A DNA stretch of 64,000 nucleotides from an uncultured Bacteroidia bacterium (GCA_965284645.1 OZ260106.1:3979160-4043159); one strand, 5' to 3'; counted from the stretch's first letter, positions 6,528 through 41,027 are shown. Numbers and translations are program-made. Notes: a model not told the origin generated them from the letters alone.

Positions 6528-6679
6528 GGCGTGCCCCCTCCGCCCAAAACCGCTTTAACCGAAAAAAAACAGTGTACAAGGGGCGTTCGGGTCAGGCTAT
6601 TCACTGCAAGTCCTCGCGACCTTCCGCTAAAGCTCCGGTCCGCTGTGGGCTTTCCGTTCCTATCCTTGCCCGAGATACC
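6528..6679 (-). repeat. Family-1 GC-rich intergenic repeat, copy A (reverse orientation)
   Basis: Shares conserved blocks with copies B-F: GGCGnGCCCC...GTCCTCGCG...CTGTGGGCTTTCC...TATCCTTGCCCGAG. Confidence 0.65.
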
Positions 6680-6796
6680 TACTGATACTTAGCATTTGCT
6701 GTAAATTTGGATAGGAATGCCTGTATAAAAAATCACCAAAATTTTAAGTTGGAATACAAAACTAAAGTACTTCACCAAAACCCAGGCACGGAGGGC

Positions 6797-6949
6797 ATCG
6801 GGCAAGGATAGAGCGTGATACCCCGCAGGCCTGCACAACCCGAACCCCTTCGGGTTGTGCAGACCGAGGAGTATTAGCGATAGCCTGGCCCTGCCGCACT
6901 GGTAGAATGGTCGATTTTTAGCACACAGCCAAAGCGGCAGGGGCCCGCC
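6797..6949 (+). repeat. Family-1 GC-rich intergenic repeat, copy B (forward). It contains a perfect 12-bp hairpin.
   Basis: CGGGCAAGGATAG...CGAGGAGTATTAGCGATAGCCTGGCC...GGGGCCCGCC. The internal hairpin is ctgcacaacccg/cgggttgtgcag. Confidence 0.65.
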
Positions 6950-7035
6950 AAATAAAAAACTATACCAAGCAATGCCCATTTTGAAGCCTTTACCGAGTGG
7001 GCAAAAACTATTTTTTCCTTGATTTAGAAATATTT

Positions 7036-7043
7036 TACATTTG
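7036..7043 (+). promoter_or_regulatory. Bacteroidetes sigma-A -7 box (TAnnTTTG) 4 nt upstream of the ATG, implying a leaderless transcript
   Basis: tacatttg at 7036-7043; ATG at 7048. Confidence 0.35.
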
Positions 7044-7047
7044 AGCC

Positions 7048-7416
7048 ATGAGTACCCAAATTATACTGTTACTGCTATTGGTTGGATTATTTGCTGGATT
7101 TTTGAGCGGATTTGTAGGGGTAGGCGGCGGAATCATTATAGTTCCGGCCTTGGTCTATTTCCTCGGTTTTAACCAACATACAGCCCAGGGAACCAGTTTA
7201 GGAGTGCTGTTGTTGCCTGTTGGAATTTTTGCCGTAATGAACTATTACAAAGCAGGTTACCTCGATATTAAGGCTGCCTTGTTTATTTCAATTGCCTTTG
7301 TAGCCGGTGCCTATTTTGGATCTAAAATTTCAATTTCGCTCGACCAAAAAATGGTGAAACAAGTATTTGGCGGCTTTCTTTTACTGGTGGCGATTAAGAT
7401 GCTGAGCGGCAAATAA
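7048..7416 (+). CDS. TauE/SafE (DUF81) family small membrane transporter subunit
   Basis: Gly-rich TM motif GFVGVGGGIIIVPALVYFLG, typical of sulfite-exporter TauE/SafE half-size units. Confidence 0.6.
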   Translation: MSTQIILLLLLVGLFAGFLSGFVGVGGGIIIVPALVYFLGFNQHTAQGTSLGVLLLPVGIFAVMNYYKAGYLDIKAALFISIAFVAGAYFGSKISISLDQKMVKQVFGGFLLLVAIKMLSGK

Positions 7417-7460
7417 ATTTTTAGCCTTATTTTATTCCTTTTCCATTGGTGCGAGAATTG

Positions 7461-7468
7461 TACCTTTG
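7461..7468 (+). promoter_or_regulatory. Bacteroidetes sigma-A -7 box (TAccTTTG) 16 nt upstream of the ribBA ATG
   Basis: tacctttg at 7461-7468. Confidence 0.4.
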
Positions 7469-7484
7469 CACCCATTTTTTTCCT

Positions 7485-8687
7485 ATGTTAAATACCATCG
7501 AAGAAGCCCTGGAAGATATACGCCAAGGGAAAGTAGTAATTGTTGTGGATGATGAGGACCGCGAAAACGAAGGCGATTTTATTACCGCCGCCCGAAATGC
7601 TACGCCCGAGGTTATCAATTTTATGATTAAAGAAGGTAGAGGATTGGTGTGCACGCCCCTTACCGAAGAACATTGCGATGAGTTGGGCTTGGGATTGATG
7701 GTTCAAGACAATACCGCTTTGCACCAAACACCATTTACAGTTTCCATCGACTTATTGGGACATGGCTGTACGACAGGCATTTCGGCCCAAGATCGGTCAA
7801 AAACCGTTAAGGCTTTAATCGACCCCAGCATTAAACCACACGAATTTGCCCGTCCAGGACATATTTTCCCATTGCGCGCTCGAAAAGGCGGGGTTTTGCG
7901 CCGCACCGGGCATACCGAAGCCACCATCGATTTAGCGCGGTTGGCCGGATTTGAGCCAGCAGGCGTTTTAGTTGAAATACTGAAAGACGACGGTACGATG
8001 GCTCGTTTGCCCGAATTATTTGAGATTGCTAGAAAGTTTGATTTGAAAGTGGTTAGCATTGAAGCACTTATCAAATATAGAATTGAAAAAGAGACCATAA
8101 TCGAAAGACAAGTGGAAGTGCAAATGCCTACCGCTTTTGGTAATTTCAAAATGATTGCCTACAAACAAACCACCACTGGTCAGGATCATTTGGCACTTGT
8201 AAAAGGCGAATGGTCAAAGGATGAATCGGTGATGGTAAGAGTGCATTCCTCCTGCATGACCGGCGACATTTTCGGCTCCTGCCGTTGCGATTGCGGACCA
8301 CAGCTACATAAAGCTATGGAGTTGGTTGAAAAATCAGGCAAAGGCGTAATTTTGTATATGAACCAAGAAGGACGCGGAATTGGTTTGCTCAACAAATTGA
8401 AAGCCTATAAATTACAAGAAGAAGGAAGGGATACGGTGGAAGCCAATTTAGAATTAGGTTTCCAAATGGATGAAAGAGATTATGGTGTAGGGGCTCAAAT
8501 TTTGAGAGATTTAAATGTATCGAAAATCAGACTTTTAACCAACAACCCGACTAAAAGAGCCGGATTAATTGGTTATGGTTTAGAAATTGTGGAGAATATC
8601 CCGTTGGAAATAAAGAGCAACGAACATAACGAACTTTACTTAAAAACTAAACGTGACAAAATGGGTCACGAATTGCGGTCTGTTTAG
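7485..8687 (+). CDS. ribBA: Bifunctional 3,4-dihydroxy-2-butanone-4-phosphate synthase / GTP cyclohydrolase II
   Basis: RibB motifs [13 protein letters not shown] and RTGHTEA. RibA zinc motif [15 protein letters not shown]. The first ATG in the track (7446) is probably upstream of the real start, MLNTIEE at 7485. Confidence 0.9.
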
Positions 8688-8698
8688 GCAAGCTTTCC

Positions 8699-10108
8699 AT
8701 GAAAACCTTGGAACTGGGAAATAACCCTGTTTTTTCGGCTGTATCGAAAGCAGGCCATGATTTGGGTGTAAAAACCTTTGTCATAGGTGGCTATGTGCGC
8801 GATTTGCTGCTTCAAAGACCCTGTAAGGATTTGGATATTGTTTGCGCCGGCTCAGGCATAGCATTGGCCGAACGGGTTGCCGAATTGCTCGACCGAAAAG
8901 GCAAGGTGAATGTTTTTAAAAACTTTGGAACAGCCCAGTTGGTTTTGGATGATTGGGAAGTAGAATTTGTAGGTGCCCGAAAAGAATCCTATCGTTCCGA
9001 TAGCCGCAAGCCTATTGTTGAAGAAGGCAGTTTGGAAGACGATCAAAACCGCCGTGATTTCACCATCAACGCGATGGCTATTTCATTGAATCAGGAAGAT
9101 TTTGGCAATTTGGTTGATCCATTTGGGGGCATACAGGATTTGGAAGCCAAACTCATCCGCACCCCTTTAAACCCTGATATCACTTACTCCGACGATCCGT
9201 TGCGCATGATGCGGGCCATTCGTTTTGCGACCCAATTGAATTTTGAGATTGAAGCGGATTCGCTAGAGGCCATTGCTAGAAATGCAGAGCGGATACAAAT
9301 CATATCCAAGGAAAGAATTATTGACGAATTGAACAAAATCATTTTGTCGCCCGTTCCTTCCATAGGGTTCAAGCATTTGTTCAATACAGGCTTGCTCAAA
9401 TTGATATTCCCCGAAATGGTAGCCTTGCATGGTGTTGAGTATAAAAACGGGAAAGGTCACAAGGACAATTTCTACCATACCTTGCAGGTGTTGGACAATT
9501 TATGTCCGAATTCCGATGACCTTTGGTTGCGTTGGGCTGCGCTATTGCACGACATTGCCAAACCACCTACCAAGCGTTTCGAGCCCAACCATGGCTGGAC
9601 TTTTCATGGGCATGAAGACAGGGGCGCAAGGATGGTTCCTGGTATTTTCTCCCGATTGAAACTGCCTTTGAATGAGAAGATGAAATTTGTGCAGAAAATG
9701 GTGCAGTTGCATTTGCGGCCTATTGTGCTATCGCAAGAAATTGTAACCGATTCAGCTGTTCGACGCTTGTTGTTCGATGCCGGTGAAGACATTGATGCCT
9801 TGATGATGCTTTGCGAGGCAGATATTACTTCGAAAAATGAGGCCAAGGTCAAGAAGCACTTGGCTAATTTTCAGTTGGTTCGGGTAAAACTGAAGGAAGT
9901 AGAAGAAAAAGACCAGGTAAGAAACTGGCAACCGCCCATCAGTGGTGAAGAAATTATGGCCTATTTCAAATTAAGTCCATGCCGTGAAGTTGGAATTATC
10001 AAAACGGCCATACGAGAAGCCATTTTGGATGGAATTATTCCAAACGAGCGAGAAGCTGCGATACAATTGATGGTAGAAGAGGGCAAGAAATTGGGGTTTG
10101 GGATTTAA
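8699..10108 (+). CDS. cca: CCA tRNA nucleotidyltransferase (poly(A) polymerase head domain plus HD domain)
   Basis: GGYVRDLLL...DLDIV nucleotidyltransferase motif. HD motif LLHDIAKP in the C-terminal half. Confidence 0.8.
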
Positions 10109-10178
10109 GCATACCGATTTGCTTGAAATTTGTTGAATAATTTAAAAGTCTAATTTGGGTCATTCCAAGTATTCAACT

Positions 10179-10186
10179 TATTTTTG
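10179..10186 (+). promoter_or_regulatory. Candidate -7 box (TAttTTTG) upstream of the 10222 gene
   Basis: Motif match only. Confidence 0.25.
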
Positions 10187-10221
10187 ATAAACAAAATTCA
10201 GTTACCAATCAAATTTGAACG

Positions 10222-12048
10222 ATGAGAAAAGCTCTTTTATTTTTTTCATTTCTGTTTATACAAATTCCAGTGTGGGCCTTACACATCTTAGGTGGACAGA
10301 TTTACTATAAAAGCTTACCGAATGGGAATTATCAATTTTTTGTGGAAGTTCTTTATGATTGTACCTCTACAACTATACTTTCGTTTCAACCTCTTCAGGT
10401 GTATAGCTCAAATTTGCCTAAAAATATAGACGGAATTCAAATAACACAAATTCAATTAAGCCTGGATACCATAATGGACATCTCACCTGTTTGCAATCCA
10501 GCAGGTCCGCAGCTATCCTGCAATGATTCACTTCCCCAATTAGGTTCTATTCGAAAATATATTTTTAGCAGTTCTGAAATTAGATTTTATGGCCAAATTC
10601 CGGATGACGGCTGGACCTATACTTATACTCAAAATTTCAGGAGCACGAATATCCTGAATCTTACAACAACACAGGATAATAGTATGGTTTTGTATACAAC
10701 CATGTACAAATACAACCAATTGCCTTGTTATCCAAGTTTTGATTCATCCCCTCAAACCCATTCCAACTTATCGACCAATTATTATGCTGGGGTTTCAGTT
10801 ATCTATAATCCCCTTACAGATGATGCCGATGGAGATAGTCTTTCTTTTCAATTTACCCCACCTCTTTATGGCAGCATTAATGGCCAAACCTTCAACCCTC
10901 CAACTTCACCGCTATACTGCACTTACGTCTCTGGATATTCCTATTCCAATCCTACACCTGACCAAAGTTTCAACCCCCAAAATATTCCATCAACCCTCAA
11001 CCCTGCTAATGGAACCTTAGAATTTAAATGCTATAATCAAGGTTTCTATATCATTGAATATGAAATCAAATCATACAGAAATGGTCACTTAATCTCTAAA
11101 TCCAATTTAGAATTTTTAACCTCAATTTCTCCTTCTACCCAATCCAACCACCCTCCCATTCTTGCTCAAGGCCCCTTAAACCAATCAACGCTCGAACTTG
11201 ATTTAACCATTGGAGACACGATGGATATTAATTTACTATTTATTGACCTTGATACGTTACCCAACAGCCTTCAACAACAAATTGATGCTACGTTATCCTC
11301 TCCTTTCCTTTCAGATTCGACAGGATCAACTCCAAATTATTCATACCAAATAACTTACACCCAAAATCATGATAGTGCTTTTGTTCATTTATTTTGGATT
11401 CCAGCCTGTTCAGCGCTTGAAGATTATCAAGTTTTTATGAGAAAAAATGCAGATTTTCATTTCTACGTTACTTGTAAGGATGATTATTGCCCTTTTCCTG
11501 CCTATTCCTTTTTTGATTTGATTGTTCATTTGAAATCAAAACCTTATTCAGGACCTACCAATTTCACTTTGCAACAAGACAGCACCTGTCATTTTCAAGT
11601 AAATCAGCTTCCCAACGCTCAATTTCATTGGTTTTATCAGGACCAAATAATCAATGGGGCAACGACAAATGCATATGCAGGACAAGGCAATGGCGGTGAT
11701 TATTCGGTTTATATTTCAATAAATTCTGGGGATTGCGAAAAATTTGATACCACCATCACTACGTATTGTTCAGGTGTAGGCATTCATGAAAACGAACTCC
11801 AACTTTTCCAAATTTACGAATACGCACCAAATGAATTCCAACTTCAGTCCAACTATTTTCAATTGGAAGCCTACGAATGCACAATTTACAACCAATTAGG
11901 TCAAACACTAAAATCATGGGAAAACCCAAAATCAAGCCAAGGACCAATCAAATTTGAATTTAATTCACCAGAAGGAATTTATTTTCTCGGATTAAAAAAT
12001 CCTTCAGGAGAATTTCGAATAGTAAAATTCCTAAAAAATCCTATTTAA
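10222..12048 (+). CDS. Secreted T9SS cargo protein with a type-A C-terminal sorting domain and an N-terminal module shared with the 59410 adhesin
   Basis: Signal peptide present. The C-terminal roughly 80 aa (IYEYAPNEF...CTIYNQLGQTL...GIYFLGLKN...RIVKFLKN) fit the Por_Secre_tail pattern. The N-terminal HILGGQIYY...LYDCTSTT...DDADGDSLSFQFTPP...SYRNGHLI block is homologous to the N-terminus of the 59410 gene. Confidence 0.7.
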   Translation: MRKALLFFSFLFIQIPVWALHILGGQIYYKSLPNGNYQFFVEVLYDCTSTTILSFQPLQVYSSNLPKNIDGIQITQIQLSLDTIMDISPVCNPAGPQLSCNDSLPQLGSIRKYIFSSSEIRFYGQIPDDGWTYTYTQNFRSTNILNLTTTQDNSMVLYTTMYKYNQLPCYPSFDSSPQTHSNLSTNYYAGVSVIYNPLTDDADGDSLSFQFTPPLYGSINGQTFNPPTSPLYCTYVSGYSYSNPTPDQSFNPQNIPSTLNPANGTLEFKCYNQGFYIIEYEIKSYRNGHLISKSNLEFLTSISPSTQSNHPPILAQGPLNQSTLELDLTIGDTMDINLLFIDLDTLPNSLQQQIDATLSSPFLSDSTGSTPNYSYQITYTQNHDSAFVHLFWIPACSALEDYQVFMRKNADFHFYVTCKDDYCPFPAYSFFDLIVHLKSKPYSGPTNFTLQQDSTCHFQVNQLPNAQFHWFYQDQIINGATTNAYAGQGNGGDYSVYISINSGDCEKFDTTITTYCSGVGIHENELQLFQIYEYAPNEFQLQSNYFQLEAYECTIYNQLGQTLKSWENPKSSQGPIKFEFNSPEGIYFLGLKNPSGEFRIVKFLKNPI

Positions 12049-12057
12049 AGCACTAGA

Positions 12058-15000
12058 TTAAAAATTCAATCCCCTTGCCATTTTCACAGGATTTAAATTT
12101 CTTAAGTTCAAGGTAAACCTAAACCGTTGGTACCATTTGATATTGTTGGCGGTCATGTAATAGGAAATATCCTGTGAGTAACCAATGGGGTAATAGATTT
12201 CAAGTACATTTTTAAGCAATGGCAAGGTAACACCCCAGTTATAAACAAAGGCCTTGCTTTCAGGGAAGGCATTTTTAGCCAAATAATAGGTGCCGATATC
12301 AGCATACAATTTAAACGGAATTACCCGATGAATACTTGTTTTGAAATTAGCTGCCATTAACCAATTGCTGGTTTGACCATAAGGTGAAAACACTTTGAAA
12401 GCCCCATCACTTTCTGTAAATTGATTACCCCAAAAGCTTTGGTTTGGTGTTTCATATCGACCTAAGAAGGGCTGGTTAAACAAATAATCTTGGTAACCTG
12501 CCTGCCCACTTAAACGATACCTGAAATCGCCTTGCACCGTTTGATTGTCATAAACAAATACCTTTCCGTAGAACAAACGTACATCGAAGCCTTTGTTTTT
12601 GCCTTTAAAGGTAAGGCGGTAATTTCCGGTTACAGAGGCCTTAGCCATGCCTTTGCTTTGCTGTACATCCAATATGATACTAAAAGGATTGATTCTTCGG
12701 TCATTTACAAAACGGTGGGTAAAATGATTGATGTAATAATTGGAAAAACGGCTTACTTCATTGCCACTTACCAAATTTTCCTTACTAACAATAACTGTTC
12801 GGAAAGAAGAGCTTTGCTGAAAATGACTACGTGCTGTATTTTTCTTGATATCCCATGAAATAGATGGGATCAATACGTTGAAATTAAGTCCGCCGTTAGC
12901 ACTGTTCCATGCATACCTAGAACCTTCCAATCCGATACTGATTTTTTGAAAAAAGGTCAGGCGAGGATACATGTTGTAATAGAACTCTGCATGTCCTGCC
13001 AAATTCTTATTGCCAAAGCCATACATAGGCGCTATAATGTACTCAAAGCGACGGTTTGGTAAAAGGGCATTATAAAAGGCCAAACCTAACATGAACTTGT
13101 TGTATTTATTCACTCCCAAAATAGGTGACCAGAAAATTTGGTTGCGTGTTGGATCTTCCAAGGCTGCGCCAAACTTAAACTGAACTTTCTCCCAGGTTTT
13201 GAACAAACCCGTTACACGACTCTGGTTATTTTTACGGTATAAATCAGTTGTTCTTCTTCCAAAATCCAATACCAACTTGTCGGCCTCAGCAGGTTTGACA
13301 TCCATAACAAATTCCTTTTTACCCGAAAAGCCATCTAACCAATCCGTTTTTACTACTTTCCCATCTTTCACCGCCGACACACTAATAGGCCCTTGGGTTT
13401 GTCCCACATTCAGTACGTCAAATTTGATTTTATCTGCATCGCCTCTCACCTTGCGGATTTTATAATCCATCCGTTTATTGGTTTGTATCAAATCGTTAAA
13501 GAGCCAAGCTAGGTCCTTCTTACTAATCTCTTCAGCTATTTTTCTAAGGTCTTCCGGATAAGGATGCCTAAATTTCCAACGGTCAAAATAAGTATGAAAG
13601 ATTTTGTCCGTCATTTCTTCTCCAAGGTTAGCCATCAGGTAGTTGAATACATCGGCCGTTTTGGAATACATAATAGCACCATAATTTACCCTGGCAAATT
13701 CGGCACTATGAGTTTCGATAGGTTGGTCTTCTCCCTTTCTTGCTGCAAAAAGATAAGATAATTCATAGTAATAATTTTGTGCTTGTTTGTTGGCACCAAT
13801 TAACCGACCAACGCCCTTTATGGCTTTTGATTCGCCGGCAATCAAATCAAAAAAATTAGCTTGGGGATGTTTCCATTCATTGTATCGACTTTCAAAAAAA
13901 GAATTTAAGCCTTCATCCAACCAACCGTGTTCACGTTCATTGCTTCCTAGAATCCCATAAAACCAATTATGTCCAACTTCGTGCATAATAACGGTTTCTA
14001 AGGAATAGGCACTGCCCGTATTTCCGATTACAGTAATATTTGGATATTCCATTCCACCACCGGCGGCAATCGTTCCATCCACAGCTGTAACATGGTTATA
14101 CGGATAATCACCGCAGTGTTTAGAATAAAACCAAGTGGCATCGTTGATATATTGAGGAGCATTTTTCCAAAGACTAGCATTGCGGTTAGTGAAATAAGCC
14201 CAAGTGGTGACTTTCTTTTTATTGGGCAATTCAACCTCACTTTTCAAAACATTCCACCGCTTATCGGCAAACCAAGCGAAATCGTGTACCTTTTCCTGAT
14301 GAAAATGAAGGGTTTTAGTTTCCTTATCCGAAGCTGGAAAATTCATATCGAGTGCATCAAATGAACCCTTTTTTGCTGTTGCATCTGCCTTTTGATTAAG
14401 CCAAGCCATTTCTTCTTGACCATTCACCAAATCGCCGGTGGCGCCAACCACATAGTTTTTAGGTAGCGTAATTTTCACATCATAGGTGCCGAATTCTGAA
14501 TAAAACTCTCCTTGGGTAAGATAGGGAAAGGCATGCCAACCTTTATGGTCATAAACGGCTGGTTTTGGATACCATTGGGTAATAAAATAGGCTTGTCCAA
14601 CATGTCCCAACCGAGAAATTTCTCCATCAGGAATTTGAACATGAAAGGGAATTGAAAGGGTAATAGTTTGTTTTGGTAATAAAGGCTCGTTAAGAAAAAC
14701 CCTACAAATATCTTTATGAACCGGATCAAATTCCCAACGCGCAGCCTGGCCGTTAATCTGAAAGGCAATACCATCAATAGAACCTAACCCTTTCTTCTTC
14801 ATGTAGTGCATGTAGGTCTCTCCATTTTCCAAATCCTGTTTAGCCATGGCCGTTTTTTGGTCGGCATAGGCATTAGGCCAGATATGGAACCAAATAAAAT
14901 CCAAGGCATTGGGCGAATTATTGGTGTAGCGTATGGTTTCAAAACCAGTTAAACTGTGGTTATTATCATCCAACTTTACCTCAATATCATAGGCTACTTC

Positions 15001-16348: not shown

Positions 16349-16453
16349 GGGACAAAGGTAGGGGTTTGGTGGAAAAGTTGAAAAAATTAGGAAGTTTAAT
16401 TTAACCATTTCTACCAAAAAAACAGGACCAATTAAAATTATTATTTCCTTTAA

Positions 16454-16614
16454 CCCAGATTACGCATTAGAAATGCATAAACGATTAACCAGTTGTAAAT
16501 CAATTTGTATAGCCAAATTGATAACAACTGCTATCCCGAAATTTCTTCGGGAGGGGTAACCCCAACTAAATCAAGTAGTTCGGATTAATAAATCCTCCTA
16601 TTGATTAATTTGGG
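16454..16614 (+). mobile_element. 161-bp MITE-like element, copy 1 (TIR CCCAGATT/AATTTGGG, TSD TTTAA)
   Basis: About 96% identical to copy 2 at 21150-21310. It is flanked by the direct repeat TTTAA (16449-16453 and 16615-16619). Confidence 0.75.
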
Positions 16615-16646
16615 TTTAATTACCTATTTTTGGCCTATGCTTAAAA

Positions 16647-16840: not shown

Positions 16841-16861
16841 GCTTATTTTATTTTTCAAAGT

Positions 16862-20540: not shown

Positions 20541-20562
20541 ATAAAAAAAATAAAATTGATGT

Positions 20563-20784
20563 GGCGGGCCCCTTTTCGCCTAAACCATTTTCAGAAAAAT
20601 TATACTTATCCCAAGGCGAAAAGGTCACGCTTTCGGCGGTAGTCCTCGGTATGCGAAGGGCTAGGCCGATAGTGCTCGATTTAATTTTTTACGAAGATCT
20701 AGCTTTTTACATCTAATTTCATTTTGCAAACGGCCTAACCCTTCACATCCCTGTGGGCTACACTGCCTCTATCGTTGCCCGAGG
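20563..20784 (-). repeat. Family-1 GC-rich repeat, copy C (reverse, with an internal insertion of about 70 bp)
   Basis: GGCGGGCCCC...GTCCTCGG...CTGTGGGCTAC...CTATCGTTGCCCGAGG. Confidence 0.6.
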
Positions 20785-20967
20785 CCGTTGTTCCAAAATC
20801 GAAGATGGAATTAAACCCAAATTCAGCATTAGAAATCTATTACAGCTTCCAACTGCTTCAAATACATGGATTTCAGAACAATTTTTGACTTCAAAATAGT
20901 TTACTATTCCTTCACCCAAAAATTAACCTGAAACCCTCGTCTTTATTGCATTTGAAAGCTTCATTAC

Positions 20968-20992
20968 GATTTCTAATGCGTAATTTGGGTTA
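20968..20992 (-). mobile_element. Solo terminal fragment of the 161-bp MITE (25 bp of the TIR end)
   Basis: Reverse complement is ttaacccaaattacgcattagaaatc, which matches the MITE left end ttaacccagattacgcattagaaat. Confidence 0.5.
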
Positions 20993-21149
20993 AAATTTGG
21001 CTCTCCGTTTTCAATTCTATAAAAATGGAAACGCATAGCGATACTAAAATCCGAATGGCAATTTTACTGAAGGTGGCTATTATTTTGGTAAGTCTCAGAC
21101 TTACTTTTCCCAAATCCAAGTTGAAAACTTGGATTTCCTCCCCCTTAAT

Positions 21150-21310
21150 CCCAGATTACGCATTAGAAATGCATAAACGATTAACCAGTTGTAAATCAAT
21201 TTGTTTGTCCAAATTGATAAAAACTGCTATCCCGAAATTTCTTCGGGAGGGGTAAACCCAACTAAATCAAGTAGTTCGGATTAATAAATCCTCCTATTGA
21301 TTAATTTGGG
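21150..21310 (+). mobile_element. 161-bp MITE-like element, copy 2 (TSD TTAAT)
   Basis: Flanked by TTAAT at 21145-21149 and 21311-21315. The distal TSD copy contains the tonB stop codon. Confidence 0.75.
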
Positions 21311-22150
21311 TTAATCCAGCACAAATACAAAGGTCATCGATCCCCGCTGTTCTTTGGTTCCGTCAAAACTAGGATTAAACTTCGTTGCAAAAGCCGCCTG
21401 ACGAGCCTTGGCATATAAAATCGGACTAGCCGTTGTACTTCCCCTCGCACCAGGTTCTGCCCTTACAACATCCCCAAACTCATTCACCACGATATCAACA
21501 ACCACTTTTCCTTGGTCTTGTGAATCATCAAAAACGGTTGGTTTCTTTACCAGCGACCGCCCCTTTAAGTTGTAACGAATACCATTGCCTACCCCTACTC
21601 CCGGACCACCTCCACTCCCTCCGTTTCCATCTGTTAATGGGTTACCATCTGGACTCCCTTCGTTGCCGGCCTGTCCGCTATTGCCATCACCCCCACCTGA
21701 ATTTTTAGAACGGGTGCGGAACTTATTCAATGCGTTCATCAATTCATTGCTTGGCTGTGGATTTGGCTTTACCACCTCAACCGGAACGTCAGGTTTCTTA
21801 ACTGTTTCCTTAGCGTCAGGTTTTGAATTGATAGCCACAGATTCTTCTGCCTCTGAAGTCAAAACATTCTCGGCTTTGCTTGGCGTTGATTCTGTATTTG
21901 GTGTAGGATTCTGAGGAACAGGCGATGGATCTGAAATATCGCCCATTTGATCGTTCTCTACATTGCCCGTACCTTCGATGAAATTTCCAAAATTCACTTC
22001 TATTCCGGGGGCTGGGCCTTCCGGATAAGGCGGAATAGGGGTTTTAAAAACCATCAAAATAAAAAACAGAAACAACAAACCATGCACCGCCAAGGTGGCA
22101 AGTATGGCCCAAACCCTCGAATTGTTGTCTTGTTCAGCAGCGCTCGTCAT
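21311..22150 (-). CDS. tonB: Energy transducer TonB
   Basis: N-terminal TM anchor, Pro-rich spacer (PIPPYPEGPAPG...PSPVPQNPTPN), and a C-terminal TonB domain. Confidence 0.8.
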   Translation of the reverse strand: MTSAAEQDNNSRVWAILATLAVHGLLFLFFILMVFKTPIPPYPEGPAPGIEVNFGNFIEGTGNVENDQMGDISDPSPVPQNPTPNTESTPSKAENVLTSEAEESVAINSKPDAKETVKKPDVPVEVVKPNPQPSNELMNALNKFRTRSKNSGGGDGNSGQAGNEGSPDGNPLTDGNGGSGGGPGVGVGNGIRYNLKGRSLVKKPTVFDDSQDQGKVVVDIVVNEFGDVVRAEPGARGSTTASPILYAKARQAAFATKFNPSFDGTKEQRGSMTFVFVLD

Positions 22151-23275: not shown

Positions 23276-23499
23276 GTTTGGCGATATATTGATTAAAGTA
23301 AAGGTGTCCTCGTTTGTTGTAACGCAAATCACCTTAGCTTATTGCGAAGGTAGGCGGGTTGTTGGTGAGGCTTTGGGAGGAAGGGCTGTACTTTTAAACA
23401 GCAAAATGTGAGTAGTGGATGCAATTGATGCCCTTTCGATAATATATAAAAAAAGTTGTCGGGAATGGTTATTTAATGCACAAATGGTTGATTTTCGTT

Positions 23500-23638
23500 C
23501 CGGGAAGGGATAGCAGTGGAAAGCCCACAGCGGCCTGAGCGTAAGCGAAAGGCGCGAGGACTTGCAACGAATAGCCCGACCATGAGCCCAGTAAAATGCC
23601 TAATCAGGGTAGAATGGTTGAGGCGAATGGGACCCGCC
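23500..23638 (+). repeat. Family-1 GC-rich repeat, copy D (forward)
   Basis: CGGGAAGGGATAGCAGTGGAAAGCCCACAGCGG...CGAGGACTTGCAACGAATAGCCCGACC...GGGACCCGCC. Confidence 0.65.
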
Positions 23639-23670
23639 AAAAAAGTAATGCAATAATGTAAGAAAAGCTT

Positions 23671-33041: not shown

Positions 33042-33043
33042 TT

Positions 33044-33814: not shown

Positions 33815-33820
33815 GTTGGT

Positions 33821-36800
33821 TTATTTACTTCGAACCAAGGTAACATGACCACGGTAAATGTGGAATTTATTATGTACATCCGTTATTTCAAACACATACA
33901 CGTACACATCTTGTTTGGCGAAATCCTCCGAATTTCTCAGTTTACCATCCCAACCTAAATTAGGATCTTTGCTTTTATAAACCGTTTCACCCCAACGGTT
34001 ATAAATACGCATTTCATACGATTTAATACCAACGCCATAACCATTAAATACTTCATTCAAATCATCCTTACTATCTTGTGGGGTAAAGGAGTTTGGAATA
34101 TAAAATACAAAATCAGGACGAATAATTGTTGGACGAACAACAGTATCTCTACAACCAAATCTATTCTCTACCATCAAAGTAGTGTTATAGGTACCAGAAT
34201 CAGGGAAAAGATATACAGGGTTTTGAAGGGTGCTTACATCACTAATGCTATCTTCAACACCAAAATTCCACCACCATTGGTTTACTTCCAAAATACTTAA
34301 GTCGGTAAAGGTTATCCAAGCATCCAATTCCGTAGCCGGCTGTGGATCGATGGCAAAATCAGCTACTGGTTTTGGCCACACTTCAATCATGGAAGGAATG
34401 GTTAACGAATCTTGGCACCCATCGCTAGTTGTCAAAATAAGTTGCACATCGAAACTACCATAGCTATCATAAATATTAGTGGCACGACTAGCATCATCTG
34501 AGAAATGGGCATCGCCAAAATTCCAACGCCAAAAATCAACTGTGTACCCAGTTGGATTTGGCACTAAATCAGTAAAGGTGGCTTCCAATGGCTGACAACC
34601 TTCAATGGTATCAGAAAGGAAGGATACTACTGGTAAAGGATTTACAATTACTTCTTTGGTAGTATCTATTACACAGTTATCATCAGTGGTAGCTTGCAAA
34701 GTCACTTGGTAGGTACCAGCAGCAGGGTACAAGTAGGTAGGGAAACTATCCGTGGAAGTAGCACCTGGAACACCAAAATCCCATAACCATGAATCAACTT
34801 TCCCTGGCGCAGGCATTTGAGTTGTATTAAAGAAAGTGGAAACGTGCGTGCTACAAGCTGGATCGGCAAAGAAATCAACCAAAGGTATAGGATAAACAAT
34901 GGCGTTTTTTGTTATATCATTGGAACATCCATGGTTTGTTGTAACCGTTAAATCCACCGAAAACGGTCCAAAATTGGTGTAGAAGTACTGAGGATTTTGC
35001 AAATTGGAAGTCCCTTCTGGAGGTCCGTCACCAAAAGACCAAGCCCAAGTATCGATAACATCATTAAAAAGGTTGGAAACTATAGAGGAATCAAGGAAAA
35101 TTGCTGGGCTTTTTAAGCAAGAAGGTGCTACATAGAAATTGACCAAAGGAAGTGGATAAATATTCACTTCTTGGGTATCCTTATCAACACAGCCATTCGC
35201 CGAAGCCATGGAAAGAATTACCTCATAAGGGCCTGCTGTATTGTAAGTAACGGTTGGATTATTTTGAGTATTGTAAGGGAAATTGATAAAAGGCGTTCCA
35301 AAACTCCAATATGGGGTTATCGGTCCATCGGCATTGGTAGAATTATTGGTAAAGCTAATTGGAAAGCCCGTACAAACATTGGTAAATGTAAAATCAGTCT
35401 GTGGACGAGAATACACCAACACATCAATAGTTGTATCGCTTACACATCCAAAGTTGGTGGTAACTTTAAAATTTACCGGTTTGGTACCATAAGAGCCGAA
35501 TATAAACTGAGGATATTGCTCCGCATTTCCTGTATCAACTCCTTCACCTAGGTTAAAATTCCAATCAAATCCAACAAGCACATCAGGATTTGCTACAGCC
35601 CCAGCCGAAGAAAAATCTGTTTGAATGCCTTCACAAACAGTAGTCGCAGAAAAATTGGCAATTGGATCAGGGTGAACTATCACATTTTGAAAGACATTTG
35701 CAATACAACCTGAATCTGATACTACCTGCAATTGCACGCCGGGAGTTCCTCCTACATTAAAGGTATAGGAAGGATTCTCGTTGTTGTCAACCGAAGGAGG
35801 AATGGAATAAAAAGTCCAATTAAAATTAGTTATGGTTCCCGACGAAATAGTTGATGTGTTTGTAAAATCCATTGGAAAGCCTGCGCAAACCTCGGTACTT
35901 GTAAAACTTGGAACGGGTATAGGATTTACAAAAATCTGCATTGAATCGGGGGCAGAAACACAGTTATATATAGTGGAAACAGTCAGAAAAACAGTATATG
36001 GACCTGGAGCTAAATAGGGATAGCAAGGATTAATCGCTCCTGAGGTACCTAATGGAACATCTCCAAATGTCCAATTGAACGTATTGATAGCATCTATGGC
36101 TGAACTTGAATTATTCAAGAAACAAATTTGCGTTCCCAAACAGGTATTTGGATTATTTCCTAAGGAAAAATCGGCTACTGGAATGTTTCCAACGTGTACA
36201 AACTTTGAAAACGAATTCACACATCCTAACGCATCCGTTACAGTGAGCTGAACCGAAAAATCGCCAGCAGCGGAATAAGCAAAAGAAGTGTTCTGCAAAT
36301 TGGAAGTATCAGCTGGATTACCAGTACCAAACTCCCAACTCCAACTTGCAATACCGCCATTTAAAGAGGTTGAACCATCTGTAAACAAAGTAGTAATACC
36401 CAAACATTCGTCGGTATTTGAAAAGAAGGGAACTGGCAAACGGTTCACCGTAACCTGAATTGTGGTATCGTTCACACAACCATTGGCATCGGTAGCCTCA
36501 ATAATCACATTCGCTGGACCAAAATTATTAAAGGTATGCGTTGCGGTTGGTCCGTTGGCCACTTGACCAGGTCCAAAATTCCAATTCACATTAGCAATTC
36601 CTCCTCCTGTGCTGGTTGAAACATCGGTAAATGTAACCGGAACACCCACACAGATATTGGGTACTGTAAAATCTGGTCTTGGATTAGGACTTATCGTTAT
36701 TGGATTTATGGTGGTATCCTTACAACCATTTCCATCTGTTGCAATAACCTGAACATTATAGGTCCCAGCGGCCGGATAAGTAAAGGTAGGCGATTGGGCC

Positions 36801-38119
36801 AAGGAAACAGCATTATTGATGTCGAAAGCCCAATTAAAACTTAAACCATTTGCACCAGGGGTGGTATTATTAAAACTCACAGGCACTCCCACGCAAGCAT
36901 TCGAAACGGTAAATTGGGCTGTTGGACGAGCCGTAACCGTTACCTGTTGAATTAAAGTATCAGCGCATCCGGCATTAGAACCTGCAATCAAGCGAACATC
37001 GTACACCCCACCATTAGCAAAAACATGGGTTGGATTTTGTAAGTTTGAAACGGGAGAACCATCGCCAAAATCCCATTCCCAAGTACTAATTTGGGAGTTG
37101 TTTACATTCGATAAATCAAAAAAGCTAACTATTTCTCCCGCACAAGCCGTGGTAAAATCATAGTCGGCATTTACTATACTAGGTTGAATTTGAGAGGTTA
37201 ACAAAATTTGACAACCTCCAAATGTTGTCAATCTGCAAGAGTATTGATCCCCAATAACAGGATTTGCTACTGATAAAGTTTGACTATTCCCTAAAATTGT
37301 ACCTGGAGTATTTGTTTTCCACCACTGATAAGTTGAAAACCCAGGCGGAGCAGTTAAAACAACTTGATTTGATCCGGCACAATAAGCCACATCAATAATC
37401 AAAGCCTGACATTGACCATATAAATAGGCATAACCAAAATGACCTCCTAAAGCGCAGTCACCAGTAGAGAAATCAACATTTACCACTTGATTAATGTAAG
37501 GCGTCAAATCCAAGGCACCTGTTTGCCAATTGAGGTATTGAACACCACCGCAATTGACAAAATTCCCAGGACTCGTCCCACAACCATTAGCTGCATAGTT
37601 ATAACTTGCACAGTTAGGATCAACCACCTGACCAGCAGCATTTGTAACCTTAACTTCAAATCTTGGCATTTCACTACAACTATGTCCAGAAGGATTTTCA
37701 TAAACCACTGCAAAACCATATATAAACAAGGCATTACCTGCATTTACTGGATTAATTGTATACCTTAATCGCTCTGCCTGAGCACCAATATTTGCATCCC
37801 CCAAACGGGCTACCTGCGAAATACCTGGAGGCAAAATTTGCAATCCTCCACACGTATTTGGATCAATACCTGGCGTATTAAAAATAGTATGCCTACCAGC
37901 CGCAATGCCAGGTGCACTAGCACTTATCGGACAACAAGACCCTGTAAACCCGCTCCAATTCGTAAAATTTTGATAAAAGAAATCTGAATTATCACACTGG
38001 CTTTGCGATTGAGCAATAGATAACTCGGGAATTACTACCGCAATAGCCATCCCTATTATTAACAACCACAACCTTTTGTAAAATTCCATTAGCCCATACA
38101 CTGTTTCAATGTCGGGCAA
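33821..38119 (-). CDS. Large secreted adhesin-like protein (1432 aa) with multiple PKD domains and a T9SS type-B (gliding-motility CHU_C) C-terminal sorting domain
   Basis: At least 8 repeats of the PKD signature (WxFGDG...N..H.Y...G.Y.V.L......C). The C-terminus YIPNSFTPQDSKDDLNEVF...IYNRWGETVY...GWDGK...DVYVYVFEI...GHVTLVR matches the type-B sorting-domain pattern. Confidence 0.85.
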   Translation of the reverse strand: MPDIETVYGLMEFYKRLWLLIIGMAIAVVIPELSIAQSQSQCDNSDFFYQNFTNWSGFTGSCCPISASAPGIAAGRHTIFNTPGIDPNTCGGLQILPPGISQVARLGDANIGAQAERLRYTINPVNAGNALFIYGFAVVYENPSGHSCSEMPRFEVKVTNAAGQVVDPNCASYNYAANGCGTSPGNFVNCGGVQYLNWQTGALDLTPYINQVVNVDFSTGDCALGGHFGYAYLYGQCQALIIDVAYCAGSNQVVLTAPPGFSTYQWWKTNTPGTILGNSQTLSVANPVIGDQYSCRLTTFGGCQILLTSQIQPSIVNADYDFTTACAGEIVSFFDLSNVNNSQISTWEWDFGDGSPVSNLQNPTHVFANGGVYDVRLIAGSNAGCADTLIQQVTVTARPTAQFTVSNACVGVPVSFNNTTPGANGLSFNWAFDINNAVSLAQSPTFTYPAAGTYNVQVIATDGNGCKDTTINPITISPNPRPDFTVPNICVGVPVTFTDVSTSTGGGIANVNWNFGPGQVANGPTATHTFNNFGPANVIIEATDANGCVNDTTIQVTVNRLPVPFFSNTDECLGITTLFTDGSTSLNGGIASWSWEFGTGNPADTSNLQNTSFAYSAAGDFSVQLTVTDALGCVNSFSKFVHVGNIPVADFSLGNNPNTCLGTQICFLNNSSSAIDAINTFNWTFGDVPLGTSGAINPCYPYLAPGPYTVFLTVSTIYNCVSAPDSMQIFVNPIPVPSFTSTEVCAGFPMDFTNTSTISSGTITNFNWTFYSIPPSVDNNENPSYTFNVGGTPGVQLQVVSDSGCIANVFQNVIVHPDPIANFSATTVCEGIQTDFSSAGAVANPDVLVGFDWNFNLGEGVDTGNAEQYPQFIFGSYGTKPVNFKVTTNFGCVSDTTIDVLVYSRPQTDFTFTNVCTGFPISFTNNSTNADGPITPYWSFGTPFINFPYNTQNNPTVTYNTAGPYEVILSMASANGCVDKDTQEVNIYPLPLVNFYVAPSCLKSPAIFLDSSIVSNLFNDVIDTWAWSFGDGPPEGTSNLQNPQYFYTNFGPFSVDLTVTTNHGCSNDITKNAIVYPIPLVDFFADPACSTHVSTFFNTTQMPAPGKVDSWLWDFGVPGATSTDSFPTYLYPAAGTYQVTLQATTDDNCVIDTTKEVIVNPLPVVSFLSDTIEGCQPLEATFTDLVPNPTGYTVDFWRWNFGDAHFSDDASRATNIYDSYGSFDVQLILTTSDGCQDSLTIPSMIEVWPKPVADFAIDPQPATELDAWITFTDLSILEVNQWWWNFGVEDSISDVSTLQNPVYLFPDSGTYNTTLMVENRFGCRDTVVRPTIIRPDFVFYIPNSFTPQDSKDDLNEVFNGYGVGIKSYEMRIYNRWGETVYKSKDPNLGWDGKLRNSEDFAKQDVYVYVFEITDVHNKFHIYRGHVTLVRSK

Positions 38120-38138
38120 ATATAATTATTAATCCCTA

Positions 38139-38183
38139 ATTGTTCAAAAAAAACGACCTTAATCACCTTTTTTTTGAACAATT
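38139..38183. promoter_or_regulatory. Perfect 16-bp AT-rich inverted repeat (aattgttcaaaaaaaa / ttttttttgaacaatt) with a 13-nt spacer
   Basis: Seen directly in the sequence. It lies between the purS 3' end and the adhesin gene start, and could be a weak bidirectional terminator or an operator. Confidence 0.35.
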
Positions 38184-38192
38184 GTTAAAAGT

Positions 38193-38444
38193 CTAAACAG
38201 CAGCAACCGAAAAACTATAGCTTTCCATAATCTGGTTAGCCAACAATTGTTTGCATGCCTTATCTACTTTGGCCCTGGCATCTTCCTCCGAAATAGCCTC
38301 TACCTCCAATTGTATATGCTTGCCAATCCGTACATTCGTTATCTCGGGCAATCCCAAATTTTTCATGCTTCCGCTTACAGCTTTTCCTTGTGGATCAAGC
38401 AATGCCTTCAATGGCATAACATCTATTTCGGCAATAAATTTCAT
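38193..38444 (-). CDS. purS: Phosphoribosylformylglycinamidine synthase subunit PurS
   Basis: The 84-aa core MKFIAEIDVMPLKALLDPQGKAV...IGKHIQLEVE matches PurS. The 142-aa track ORF is an upstream extension. Confidence 0.8.
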   Translation of the reverse strand: MKFIAEIDVMPLKALLDPQGKAVSGSMKNLGLPEITNVRIGKHIQLEVEAISEEDARAKVDKACKQLLANQIMESYSFSVAAV

Positions 38445-38541
38445 TGTTTTGGTTTGAAAGTGCAAAGATGGCGTAAGGATGGTTATATCAAAACCAAAAT
38501 TCATATTTTTGAATAAATTTTTAAAAGATTTTTCCGCATCC

Positions 38542-39777
38542 ATGAAACAACTCTTTTTCATCACCTGTCTTATCCTACCGTCATCACTGCTGGCCCAGGA
38601 AAAATCATACTTCCGCATCAAACAACAAACTATCCAATATTGGGCAGGGTCATGGGAAAACTACGAAAGACTTTCCTACACCTATGACACCACAGGCAAC
38701 CTCTCCGAAAAACTTAAGGAACAATTTACCCTCAATACCTCCTCCGGAAGCTGGAATTTGTTCAGCAAGGAAAATACGGTGTACGACACCTTGGATCGTC
38801 CTACCCAAACCATTACAAGCCTTTACAGCAACGGCAATTGGAATAATTATTTTAAAATTGATCTTGCCTACGATTCGCTCGGGAACCAAATCTACAAAAC
38901 CTCTAGCAATTGGCTGAATGGTCAATGGAATACCCAACTCGGTGAAAAACGTCTCTATTCCTTTAACAATAACCTGCCCGACTCGCTTATCTTTCAAAGC
39001 TGGAACACTTCTTCTTCGCAATTCGAAAACAATTCCTGTTACCGCTTCCATTTCACAAATTCGACTTTAGATTGGATAGAGGTACTCAAATGGAACAACA
39101 CTTGGACTCCCTTTCAAAAAATTCAAAACCTCAATTTCTTCCTCCCCTACTCCTCCGGCGATTTTTGGAAATGGTACCAAACTAACCTGTCGGCCTACGA
39201 AAAAATGGACAATACCAGCGCCAATTTAGTACCCTTCGAAAAAGGCCTTTTGAGCTTTCTGAATCCCGGCGTTCTGCTTTCTGAACTTTACCAACATGGA
39301 ACAAATGGCACCTGGGTCGATAGCAGTAAAACGGAGTATCAATACTACCAAAGCAATGGCCGCATCAAGGAAATCGACGAATTCAGTTTTGTAAACAATG
39401 CTTGGTACCAATACAATGGCACCTACACTACTTACACCGATAATTCTGATGGAAATATAGATTACCAAATCGAAAAAGATTGGCAAAATCAAACCTGGGA
39501 AAACCAAAAGAAAATCATTTATACCTACGAATTCCAAACGGGCCTATCCGAGTTGACAAATGCCCTTCCCATGCTTTTTCCGAATCCTGCCCAAAACGAA
39601 ATAAACCTGCCTCCAACTTCGAAAAACCAAGCCTTCCAACTGTTTACGAGCCATGGACAATTGGTTTGGGAAGGCAATTTGAATGGCCATAAAATCGATG
39701 TTTCCCAACTCATTCCCGGACTTTATTTGCTTCGGACCAAACAAGGTCAAAACCTAGGCCGTTTCATCAAAGAATAG
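38542..39777 (+). CDS. Secreted protein with a T9SS type-A C-terminal sorting domain
   Basis: Signal peptide MKQLFFITCLILPSSLLAQ. C-terminus LFPNPAQNEINL...FQLFTSHGQLVWEG...IDVSQLIPGLYLLRTK fits Por_Secre_tail. Confidence 0.7.
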   Translation: MKQLFFITCLILPSSLLAQEKSYFRIKQQTIQYWAGSWENYERLSYTYDTTGNLSEKLKEQFTLNTSSGSWNLFSKENTVYDTLDRPTQTITSLYSNGNWNNYFKIDLAYDSLGNQIYKTSSNWLNGQWNTQLGEKRLYSFNNNLPDSLIFQSWNTSSSQFENNSCYRFHFTNSTLDWIEVLKWNNTWTPFQKIQNLNFFLPYSSGDFWKWYQTNLSAYEKMDNTSANLVPFEKGLLSFLNPGVLLSELYQHGTNGTWVDSSKTEYQYYQSNGRIKEIDEFSFVNNAWYQYNGTYTTYTDNSDGNIDYQIEKDWQNQTWENQKKIIYTYEFQTGLSELTNALPMLFPNPAQNEINLPPTSKNQAFQLFTSHGQLVWEGNLNGHKIDVSQLIPGLYLLRTKQGQNLGRFIKE

Positions 39778-39806
39778 CTTTTTTTCAAGTAATAAAGACA
39801 GGATTT

Positions 39807-39955
39807 GGCGGGCCCCCTTCCGCCAAAACCGGCTTTACCCAGGAATTGACCTTGGTGCAAGGGCGGTCGGGTCACGCTTTCCGCAGTAGTCCTCGGTTTG
39901 CTCCGTTAGCACTGCGCAAACCTGTGGGCTACTTGCTGCAATCGTTGCCCGGAAG
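39807..39955 (-). repeat. Family-1 GC-rich repeat, copy E (reverse)
   Basis: GGCGGGCCCCCTTCCGCCAAAACCGGCTTTACCC...GTCCTCGG...CTGTGGGCTAC...ATCGTTGCCCGGAAG. Confidence 0.65.
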
Positions 39956-40104
39956 AAACCCCGCTCCTGGCATTGTACGTCTATTATACAGTACAAGTCC
40001 GCCCCAACCTAAAGCAATAATTTCCTAAAAAAATCCAGCCATACACCATTCGGCTTGAAGATTGAACCTAGGAATGAAGTCCTTCCACAGGAGCAGCAGA
40101 ATGA

Positions 40105-40611
40105 CTAAAATTTAGACTTGGTATCCAACAAGGTAACATTGCCTCTCAAATCGATTATGAAACAATGCGTATTCAGGTGAAAATCACGGAAAATCCTTTC
40201 AGCCAATTCCACAGCGAAATCCTTGTGGCATTTAATTTCGGACGACTTTTCAGAAAGGTCAACTTTCGAAGTATCCAACAAATTGGTGTAGGCTCCACAA
40301 TCTTCATGCTCCACAATATATACATCTTTAATATGGTGAAGTTTTATGGCCAAATCAATATGGTCGTACAAAGCCTTTCCCCAGTGAGCATACTTCTCAA
40401 AAGTCCCTTCCATAAACAAGTGGCGGCCTTTTTCAGTAGTGAGCAAGGAAGTACCCGCCAAAATAAAATGGTCGTAGCGGTTGTGCAGGTTGTCGAAATG
40501 CAGAAAATCGACCAAATTATCGGTGAGTCGCAGATCCATGCAGCTTAAAACCAAAATATTCTTTTTGGGAAGATGGTACTCTTTTACATCCGGATAGTTA
40601 AGATTGGACAT
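40105..40611 (-). CDS. Short beta-class carbonic-anhydrase-like protein (168 aa)
   Basis: Candidate zinc-ligand motifs LSCMDLRL (CxDxR) and HEDCGA (HxxCG) are spaced as in beta-class carbonic anhydrases. Overall similarity is weak. Confidence 0.45.
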   Translation of the reverse strand: MSNLNYPDVKEYHLPKKNILVLSCMDLRLTDNLVDFLHFDNLHNRYDHFILAGTSLLTTEKGRHLFMEGTFEKYAHWGKALYDHIDLAIKLHHIKDVYIVEHEDCGAYTNLLDTSKVDLSEKSSEIKCHKDFAVELAERIFRDFHLNTHCFIIDLRGNVTLLDTKSKF

Positions 40612-40883
40612 AACTTATTTGAAGTGAATAAATTTAAGGAATGAGGAAAACGAATGAAACTTTTAGCATTCAAATCATAGGATTAGAACAATAGGAATTT
40701 AGGTTATTGGCACCAAAGAAAGCCTTAATTTCAATAGAAACTACTTTTCTTGAGTATTCATCTAATTTATTACCTCTTTATTTCAAAGGTAAAATGGTAG
40801 TCTATATACCAGAACCTCCCTTTACCAAAAGGAAATGGGAAGCAAACTATAAAGGCCACCGCAAAAAGTGGTTTGGGGATGTC

Positions 40884-41027
40884 TCGGGCAGGGATAGAAA
40901 CGGAAAGCCCACAACGGCCCGAGCGAATGCGACAGGCGTGAGGACTTGCAGTGAATAGCCCGACCATGAGCCCTTGCACTACAGGTTAATCGGAGGAGGA
41001 ATGGGTATTGGGGCGAATGGGGCACGC
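40884..41027 (+). repeat. Family-1 GC-rich repeat, copy F (forward)
   Basis: TCGGGCAGGGATAGAAACGGAAAGCCCACAACGG...TGAGGACTTGCAGTGAATAGCCCGACCATGAGCCC...GGGGCACGC. Confidence 0.65.

Follow-up and report, generated by a model that had tools for sequence, protein, structure and literature searches.

Introduction

Weinberg et al. 2010 introduced the Flavo-1 motif (Rfam RF01705) with one sentence of comment, on its taxonomic range, and list it in their tables as probably an RNA and not cis-regulatory (PMC2864571). Its type in Rfam is Gene; sRNA (small RNA), and few of the Rfam 'sRNA' families are as abundant (PMC9029176); the literature that we searched contained no study of its function. Here we analyse a stretch of 64,000 nucleotides (nt) from an uncultured Bacteroidia bacterium (GCA_965284645.1 OZ260106.1:3979160-4043159; this whole stretch is called the window below), in which an earlier sequence-only reading had noticed six GC-rich intergenic repeats that it could place in no named family and took to be either a structured small RNA or a REP/MITE-like element (REP, repetitive extragenic palindrome; MITE, miniature inverted-repeat transposable element). 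Judged by sequence and covariation, these six repeats are members of the Flavo-1 family. The family is already known and the window adds members with a lineage-specific closing helix; new here are an extended three-way junction with a tail, the absence of signals for transcription, the turnover of copies together with constraint on those retained, and a short-range preference for inverted neighbours. Three of these results alter how experiments on Flavo-1 should be designed, namely the closed junction with its tail, the lack of transcription signals, and repeat-type dynamics together with purifying selection. We favour, at about an even chance of being correct, the reading that each repeat is a dispersed REP-like element, recognised in its folded single-stranded form by a putative conserved trans-acting protein, and not a dedicated sRNA gene.

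A three-way junction with a tail

One strand of each copy folds as a three-way junction, larger than the hairpin modelled in Rfam. Among 109 parsed instances, a closing helix of 5 base pairs (P1) surrounds a long arm (P2), which is the Rfam hairpin part of the element, and a second hairpin (P3), which is variable. What the published alignment shows as 'unpaired' GCGUG forms the 5' strand of P1; the 3' strand (P1') comes after P3 and leads into a single-stranded tail, CCAAA. In P2, helices of 2-3 bp are stacked and split by conserved purine-rich 3x3 internal loops (G-N-A opposite G-G-A). The P2 core of the first of two inner sub-types (type 1) has two-fold symmetry, GCAGCGGA pairing with GCAGCGGA, and a GGA-GC...GC-GGA unit often recurs in the longer P3 and tip hairpins. 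The sequence of P1 varies (GCGTG/CACGC, GCGTT/AACGC, GCGCC/GGCGC, GCAAC/GTTGC, GGCTG/CAGCC, CGGGC/GCCCG and others) and its complementarity is kept. The variant CGGGC/GCCCG is common to all copies of the window's clade, across both inner types, and compared with the usual GCGUG/CACGC it has four of the five pairs changed on both sides. The element measures 141-222 nt in the window and about 90-220 nt across the family.

Covariation among 114 copies aligned to a covariance model strongly supports this conserved structure. Standard pairs fill 95% of cells compared to 81% in shuffles and 24-45% with slid partners, double changes occur in 22 of 23 pairs, and all five P1 pairs covary; helices 2-4 of the Flavo-1 hairpin are 98-99% paired, with double changes in 14 of 15 pairs. 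RNAalifold, run on an unfitted MAFFT alignment, gave the same P1, P2 and P3 helices de novo. Given this covariation, 'conserved blocks with variable spacers', as the repeats were first described, was the right reading. Nearest-neighbour folding with DNA parameters is no better than for shuffled sequences (z about 0), so that the fold rests on covariation and non-canonical motifs and not on stem strength. No covariation was seen between the pyrimidine flank (YYY) on the 5' side and the AAA of the tail on inspection of the parsed instances. The interiors of P3, and in some lineages the tips of P2 (loci L017, L021, L036, L057 and L072), are hypervariable and often AT-rich inside a nearly invariant GC-rich scaffold, even between relatives 95% identical (window 23580-23631 compared to 4821-4880 of the syntenic contig L111).

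All six repeats first noticed are present in the orientations given and at essentially the same coordinates, far above chance, and all lie between long open reading frames (ORFs). Bit scores below are from the Rfam Flavo-1 model, where it matches, and from covariance models (CM) R1 and R2.

Copy A, 6525-6672, minus strand, inner type 1: P1 5' strand 6668-6672 CGGGC; P2 6594-6666; P3 6535-6591; P1' 6530-6534 GCACG (one G.A mismatch); tail 6525-6529 CCAAA; Flavo-1 32.2 bits, E=4.8e-5 (small region), CM R1 58 bits, CM R2 59.7 bits.
Copy B, 6799-6952, plus strand, divergent inner type: P1 6799-6803 CGGGC; P2 6805-6886 with a perfect 14-bp tip stem; P3 6889-6942; P1' 6943-6947 GCCCG; tail 6948-6952 CCAAA; CM R1 33 bits, CM R2 45.8 bits.
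Copy C, 20560-20781, minus strand, inner type 2 (GUAGCCCACAGG...GAGGACUAC): P1 20777-20781; P2 20627-20775 with an AT-rich tip insert of ~75 nt; P3 20570-20624; P1' 20565-20569 GCCCG; tail 20560-20564 CCACA; CM R2 26.7 bits.
Copy D, 23501-23641, plus strand, inner type 1: P1 23501-23505 CGGGA; P2 23507-23577; P3 23580-23631; P1' 23632-23636 ACCCG; tail 23637-23641 CCAAA; Flavo-1 34.6 bits, E=4.5e-6, CM R1 69.3 bits.
Copy E, 39804-39951, minus strand, inner type 2: P1 39947-39951 CGGGC; P2 39874-39945; P3 39814-39871; P1' 39809-39813 GCCCG; tail 39804-39808 CCAAA; CM R1 35.4 bits, CM R2 53.1 bits.
Copy F, 40885-41031, plus strand, inner type 1: P1 40885-40889 CGGGC; P2 40891-40961; P3 40964-41021; P1' 41022-41026 GCACG (one mismatch); degenerate tail 41027-41031 CATAA; Flavo-1 36.6 bits, CM R1 63.5 bits.

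Repeat finding and direct alignment both recover the six copies, and the alignment divides them into two inner sub-types, A/D/F and B/C/E. A 27-nt pattern of the 3' arm, allowing up to 3 mismatches, occurs 3 times in the window compared to 0 times in 100 shuffles. Within the window, CGGGCAAGGATAG with up to 2 mismatches finds the six copies only, GGGGCCCGCCAAA with up to 1 mismatch finds five of the six, and a covariance model derived from other genomes detects the six and no further site. The shared ordered blocks are real and read CGGGnAnGGATAG / AGCCCACAG / GAGGACT / GAAWAGCnnGACC / GGGnCnCGCC(AAA). The GC content, put at about 60%, is 56-59% in copies A, B, D, E and F compared to 40.4% for the window, and only 48% in copy C because its long arm has an AT-rich insert at the tip; the perfect stem in copy B, first counted as 12 bp, has 14.

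Only two short ORFs overlap copies (6689-6979, minus strand, and 40707-40958, plus strand) and are taken to be spurious. The flanking long ORFs encode chromosomal proteins of ordinary kinds, among them TauE, an OmpA/PD40 protein, ExbB, an amidohydrolase, a protein with a type IX secretion system tail and a GH1 protein. Copies A and B form a head-to-head doublet with 126 nt between their 5' ends, and a similar doublet occurs in a metagenome contig (L159) with matching sequence 5' of the second copy; at 1030-1190 of that contig the spacer of the doublet holds a 21-nt tandem repeat, GAAAAGAGAAAATAGTAGTGA, which the window lacks. Over 97 nt, copy F shares 90% identity with one from a Sediminibacterium metagenome-assembled genome (MAG; locus L082).

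Membership of the Flavo-1 family

At the gathering threshold, Rfam reports a tRNA alone in the whole window and none of the copies. With E-value thresholds, the Rfam search, a check that the sequence-only reading had proposed, names Flavo-1 and only Flavo-1 for copies A, D and F (32-37 bits; E-values of 4e-4 to 6e-3 on the whole window and of 5e-6 to 5e-5 on small regions), and copies B, C and E have no match to the Rfam Flavo-1 model, E-value thresholds included. The gathering cut-off for RF01705 is 42 bits, an operational threshold that the window copies do not reach and below which many typical Flavo-1 members of other genomes likewise score; long inserts at the tip lower the score. Since most copies with this architecture escape the Rfam model, pipelines that annotate genomes count too few members of the family and call the rest sRNA genes.

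The Flavo-1 consensus hairpin (GGGAUWG / NAG / YG ... RCG / GAWAGCCCG) with its internal loops is present in the window copies, as seen in the alignment of the six, in the parsed instances and in the published Stockholm alignment, so that both share one long hairpin, GGGAUWG-NAG-YG ... RCG-GAWAGCCCGACC. Both inner modules of the window, GGAAAGCCCACAG...GAGGACUUG and GUAGCCCACAG...GAGGACUAC, are found in the published alignment, one example there being GCGUGAGGGAUA-GAAGU-GGAAAG-CC-CACAG...GCGAGGAC-UU-GUAACGGAUAGCCCGACC, and the published form 'GUAG-CC-CACAG...GAGGAC-UAC' corresponds to the module of copies B, C and E. Because the published alignment holds exactly the modules of the window, we assign the repeats to Flavo-1. 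High copy number is a further likeness (96 published hits in Flavobacterium psychrophilum), as is a taxonomic range, in the published set and here, of Bacteroidota plus a few Spirochaetes. The window copies differ from the published description in three respects: the published model ends four nt after GACC and treats as unpaired flank the GCGUG that is here one strand of P1, the window's lineage carries P1 as CGGGC/GCCCG, and its copies fall under the 42-bit cut-off or are missed entirely by the Rfam model.

Scanning genomes with the pattern of one inner module gave at least 110 loci in Flavobacteriales, Chitinophagales, Cytophagales and Sphingobacteriales, as well as in Spirochaetales MAGs, and scanning metagenomes with the other module gave 113 further loci; together they form a comparison set of about 220 loci beyond the window. 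The nearest named relatives of the window's proteins, at 65-67% identity, are those of Mucilaginibacter (Sphingobacteriia). No viral origin is indicated, as the pattern has zero matches in 2.9 million viral contigs.

Transcription signals and gene context

The main rival to a REP-like element, which we consider doubtful, is that each copy is an independently expressed structured small RNA, for example a protein-binding or decoy RNA or a ribonucleoprotein component whose purine-loop arm binds a dimeric protein, with paralogous genes standing in any orientation. The strong covariation and the conserved non-canonical loops are what such an RNA would display, as is a strand preference: of 186 variable hairpins, 144 fold better on the element strand than on the complement. 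The edges of conservation are sharp (YYY|P1...P1'|CCAAA): pyrimidines occupy positions -3 to -1, and the tail starts with CC in 95% and continues with AAA in 77%. Beyond -3 and +5 the position profiles are flat, with no Bacteroidetes -7/-33 box and no T-run on either strand; the motif TAnnTTTG occurs 10 times in sense and 9 times in antisense in 78 upstream windows, which is no enrichment. A small RNA gene would thus have neither an upstream promoter motif nor a downstream U-tract terminator. Within the conserved helices there are 30 G-U pairs compared to 35 A-C mismatches, and other mismatches are likewise no rarer, unlike typical RNA families, in which G-U is favoured. In the transcriptome paper on F. 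psychrophilum, Flavo-1 hits lie sense or antisense to transcribed regions and many are untranscribed. These indirect signs, the missing transcription signals and the transcriptome, disfavour a dedicated sRNA gene.

The placement of the copies relative to genes speaks to both this rival and a second one. Copies are spread about evenly over the four gene-orientation configurations (23, 17, 20 and 21), which independent genes may well show, as they can ignore the orientation of their neighbours. The head side stands ~80 nt farther from genes than the tail side, room in which a promoter could lie, and where genes converge the tail side is near their stop codons (median 39-64 nt); in the window, four of the six copies are 20-30 nt past a stop codon. 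This last observation is what would be expected of a cis-acting element in the untranslated region of the adjacent gene's mRNA, such as a 3'-end protector, a processing site or a terminator. We regard such a role as quite improbable: the mRNA at these sites would hold the reverse complement of the element, turning the purine loops into pyrimidine loops, the orientation classes are equally common with a quarter of the copies between divergent genes, and there is no T-run. A terminator role in particular was rejected, as no T-run lies 3' of the element on either strand. The flanking genes have no common theme; among 150 ORFs with 195 Pfam families, no family occurs more than 4 times, and no transposase or recombinase was found.

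Copy turnover and constraint

Copies are gained and lost between relatives, and retained ones are under purifying selection. Syntenic contigs were available from relatives whose amidohydrolase is 95% (L111), 88% (L112 and L113) and 84% (L114) identical to that of the window. Comparison of orthologous sites, proposed by the sequence-only reading as a check, showed presence and absence of copies among these relatives and also stability of C and D between the window and L111, where copy C is retained with its insert, and copy D has nearly identical P1, P2 and P3 base and a diverged P3 interior. In L112, only a 3' remnant stands at the site of C, and the site of D holds a different copy of the other sub-type in the other orientation; L114 has copies, with the same clade-specific P1, at sites where the window has none. 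Between copy D and exbB, L111 carries two extra genes (5118-7574, a MBOAT acyltransferase and a 325-aa protein; compare window 23332-23500) that the window and L112 are without.

A locus common to ten metagenome contigs has one copy in all ten and a second, head-to-head copy that is intact in 6, decayed in 1, cleanly absent in 1 and missing in 2. The clean absence, in L216 compared to six filled orthologues, has a 5-bp microhomology (AAACC) at the empty site and may therefore be a deletion. At this locus the elements are 94% identical compared to 74-80% for flanks and spacer, and orthologous copies change at about a quarter of the rate of their flanks. Within one genome, copies share lineage-specific features. 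Purifying selection on orthologous copies would suit a small RNA; the quick turnover of copies between relatives would not.

Presence and absence between relatives would also be expected of a classical MITE that a DDE transposase would mobilise through P1 and the tail as terminal inverted repeats, and the outermost sequences are indeed inverted, reading TTTGGCGGG...CCCGCCAAA in head-to-head doublets. We consider a MITE very improbable and largely refuted. A search for target-site duplications of k=3-5 at all offsets found none, nor were there any in the sub-type that lacks P1; no transposase lies nearby, and the core is conserved phylum-wide, unlike that of MITEs. Furthermore, P1 differs among copies of one genome and yet remains complementary, which indicates selection for pairing and not for a fixed transposase site. 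UAGC or AAACC direct repeats flanking some P1-less copies were considered as target-site duplications and rejected, as no within-copy match held across the wider sample. A classical MITE and a cis-acting role in the untranslated region are hence both disfavoured.

The window also holds a true MITE family, whose clean insertions relative to L111 lend the MITE reading some plausibility for this genome. This separate AT-rich family of ~170-190 nt lies at 16447-16616, 20802-20994 and 21143-21312, with terminal inverted repeats TTAAACCCAAATTA...TAATTTGGGTTTAA, and is presumably the 'first' repeat family of the sequence-only reading. Two of its three window copies are clean insertions compared to L111, over the stretch where copies C and D of Flavo-1 are stable; elsewhere, copies that are 96-98% identical occur in the Sediminibacterium MAG, and another is found at L114 3185-3290. 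The family behaves as an active MITE.

Orientation of neighbouring copies

In the window the order of the copies alternates (-, +, -, +, -, +; 5 of 5 neighbouring pairs). Over all fetched loci, with loci of homologous flanks collapsed, neighbouring pairs are inverted in 34 cases and direct in 6, and pairs at most 1 kb apart comprise 10 head-to-head, 0 tail-to-tail and 1 tandem. An independent set of 96 F. psychrophilum coordinates from the 2010 alignment gave 11 inverted compared to 3 direct pairs within 5 kb and random orientation beyond 10 kb. Long-range alternation is rejected by these complete-genome data, which confine the effect to about 5-8 kb, so that the alternations of the window over 13.6 kb and 16.2 kb may be chance.

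The simplest reading of the inverted preference is that repeated DNA as such behaves in this way: direct repeats close to each other would disappear or be counter-selected because they promote deletion, leaving close copies mainly inverted. REPIN-like inverted doublets may also be a unit of gain. Cargo carried between inverted pairs was considered and rejected, as only housekeeping genes (sucC, mutL, dnaG, trpD-like) lie there. A replichore bias was sought in F. psychrophilum, where at best 57 of 96 copies agree (p=0.08, not significant).

Six F. psychrophilum copies in NC_009613 are identical (published coordinates 570785, 1039046, 1244341, 1590815, 1726586 and 2504159), and at loci L012 and L045 a Flavo-1 copy lies 0.8-2 kb from rRNA genes. 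Taken together, these suggest that the identical copies may travel with rRNA operon duplications.

Comparison with other repeat systems

The system that Flavo-1 most resembles in behaviour is that of REP sequences, their doublets (REPINs) and the REP-associated tyrosine transposases (RAYTs). Both consist of high-copy, intergenic, structured repeats without target-site duplications, of which single copies are retained; in both, copies within a genome have lineage-specific features in common; and both form close inverted doublets, which for Flavo-1 means 10 of the 11 pairs within 1 kb, copies A and B being one such. The units themselves differ. REPs are palindromes of 20-40 nt with a GTAG or CGTC foot, whereas Flavo-1 has no such foot and is a three-way junction of 90-220 nt with conserved non-canonical loops and a phylum-wide core. 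No RAYT gene was found beside the copies, as none of the 150 flanking ORFs is a transposase, in a search that covered the flanks only. A Bacteroidetes-specific RAYT subclass, 2.6, has been reported with 'atypical' repeats; a link to it was rejected, as its published repeat sequences are unrelated short hairpins.

The ERIC, Correia, RUP and BOX elements are likewise ~100-200 nt long, intergenic, found in both orientations and foldable when co-transcribed, with variable internal segments. They differ in having long terminal inverted repeats and usually target-site duplications, and in being restricted to a genus or family; Flavo-1 copies have no target-site duplication. To the attC sites of integrons the likeness appears to be one of principle only: both seem to keep structure over sequence, with a variable terminal part, a pseudo-symmetric core with unpaired bases, and one recognisable strand. 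The attC sites stand in same-orientation arrays by cassettes and an integrase, whereas Flavo-1 copies are single and lie among housekeeping genes.

Discussion

Of the two options first offered, a structured small RNA or a REP/MITE-like element, conserved structure is upheld and REP-like is the best description of behaviour, in a form that is not a canonical REP. An sRNA gene is disfavoured by the lack of a promoter or terminator consensus and of any orientation rule, by G-U pairs being no commoner than A-C, and by the transcriptome, and a MITE by the lack of target-site duplications. We infer REP-like behaviour rather than an RNA gene from this pattern. The mechanism that we infer for it involves a trans-acting factor: the element would be recognised as a folded single strand, either single-stranded DNA or RNA from read-through, by a putative conserved protein that probably acts as a dimer on the symmetric purine-loop core. 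Such recognition would both spread copies and maintain them, and closely spaced copies would persist mainly when inverted, as direct repeats invite deletion.

Several observations weigh against a REP-like element. We identified no trans-acting enzyme, and RAYT subclass 2.6 of the Bacteroidetes occurs rarely and has been published with short hairpins of another kind as its repeats. The lack of a clear replichore bias in F. psychrophilum argues against a mechanism tied to the lagging strand, as in IS200/IS605. Conserved non-canonical purine loops together with shuffle-level stability are more typical of functional RNAs than of REP palindromes, and the better folding of the element strand (144 of 186) also fits a specific RNA. 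There is one clean empty site only, with its 5-bp microhomology, maybe the result of deletion, and purifying selection on single copies is unexpected for a purely selfish repeat.

A broader and improbable idea is that Flavo-1 is the substrate of a phylum-wide single-strand nucleic-acid system in Bacteroidota, with the extended junction as the functional unit. This system might be a new REP-like one, in which a non-RAYT dimeric enzyme acts on the purine-loop core, or might consist of tRNA-like minihelix RNAs. In support of the tRNA-like form, P3 stacks directly on P1, CCA follows directly after P1, and a pyrimidine at -1 and a G at +1 occur in 99% of copies; speculatively, these could be features of a substrate of RNase P and CCA-end processing, by analogy with a tRNA-type minihelix.

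Other features of the window and of related contigs

In soil Bacteroidota contigs, a short GC-rich hairpin repeat flanks a Flavo-1 doublet locus (L136 2600-2700, L198 1650-1800, L191 450-560 and related contigs), reading GTCATCCTGAGCG.AGCGAAGGATC / GTCATTGCGAGGAG.AACGACGAAGCAATC. Three features of the window lie beyond the last Flavo-1 copy. At 56775-56945, inside an ORF on the minus strand (55848-57227), a repeat with a 9-nt period, ACCAGCAGCACCGGC..., would encode collagen-like Gly-X-Y triplets on the minus strand. A tRNA gene with anticodon CAU (Met or Ile2 type; 65 bits) is located at 57471-57543 on the plus strand. Finally, direct repeats with a period of ~460 nt extend over 60655-63980 in a long coding region that runs past the end of the window, which suggests a large surface protein with tandem domains.

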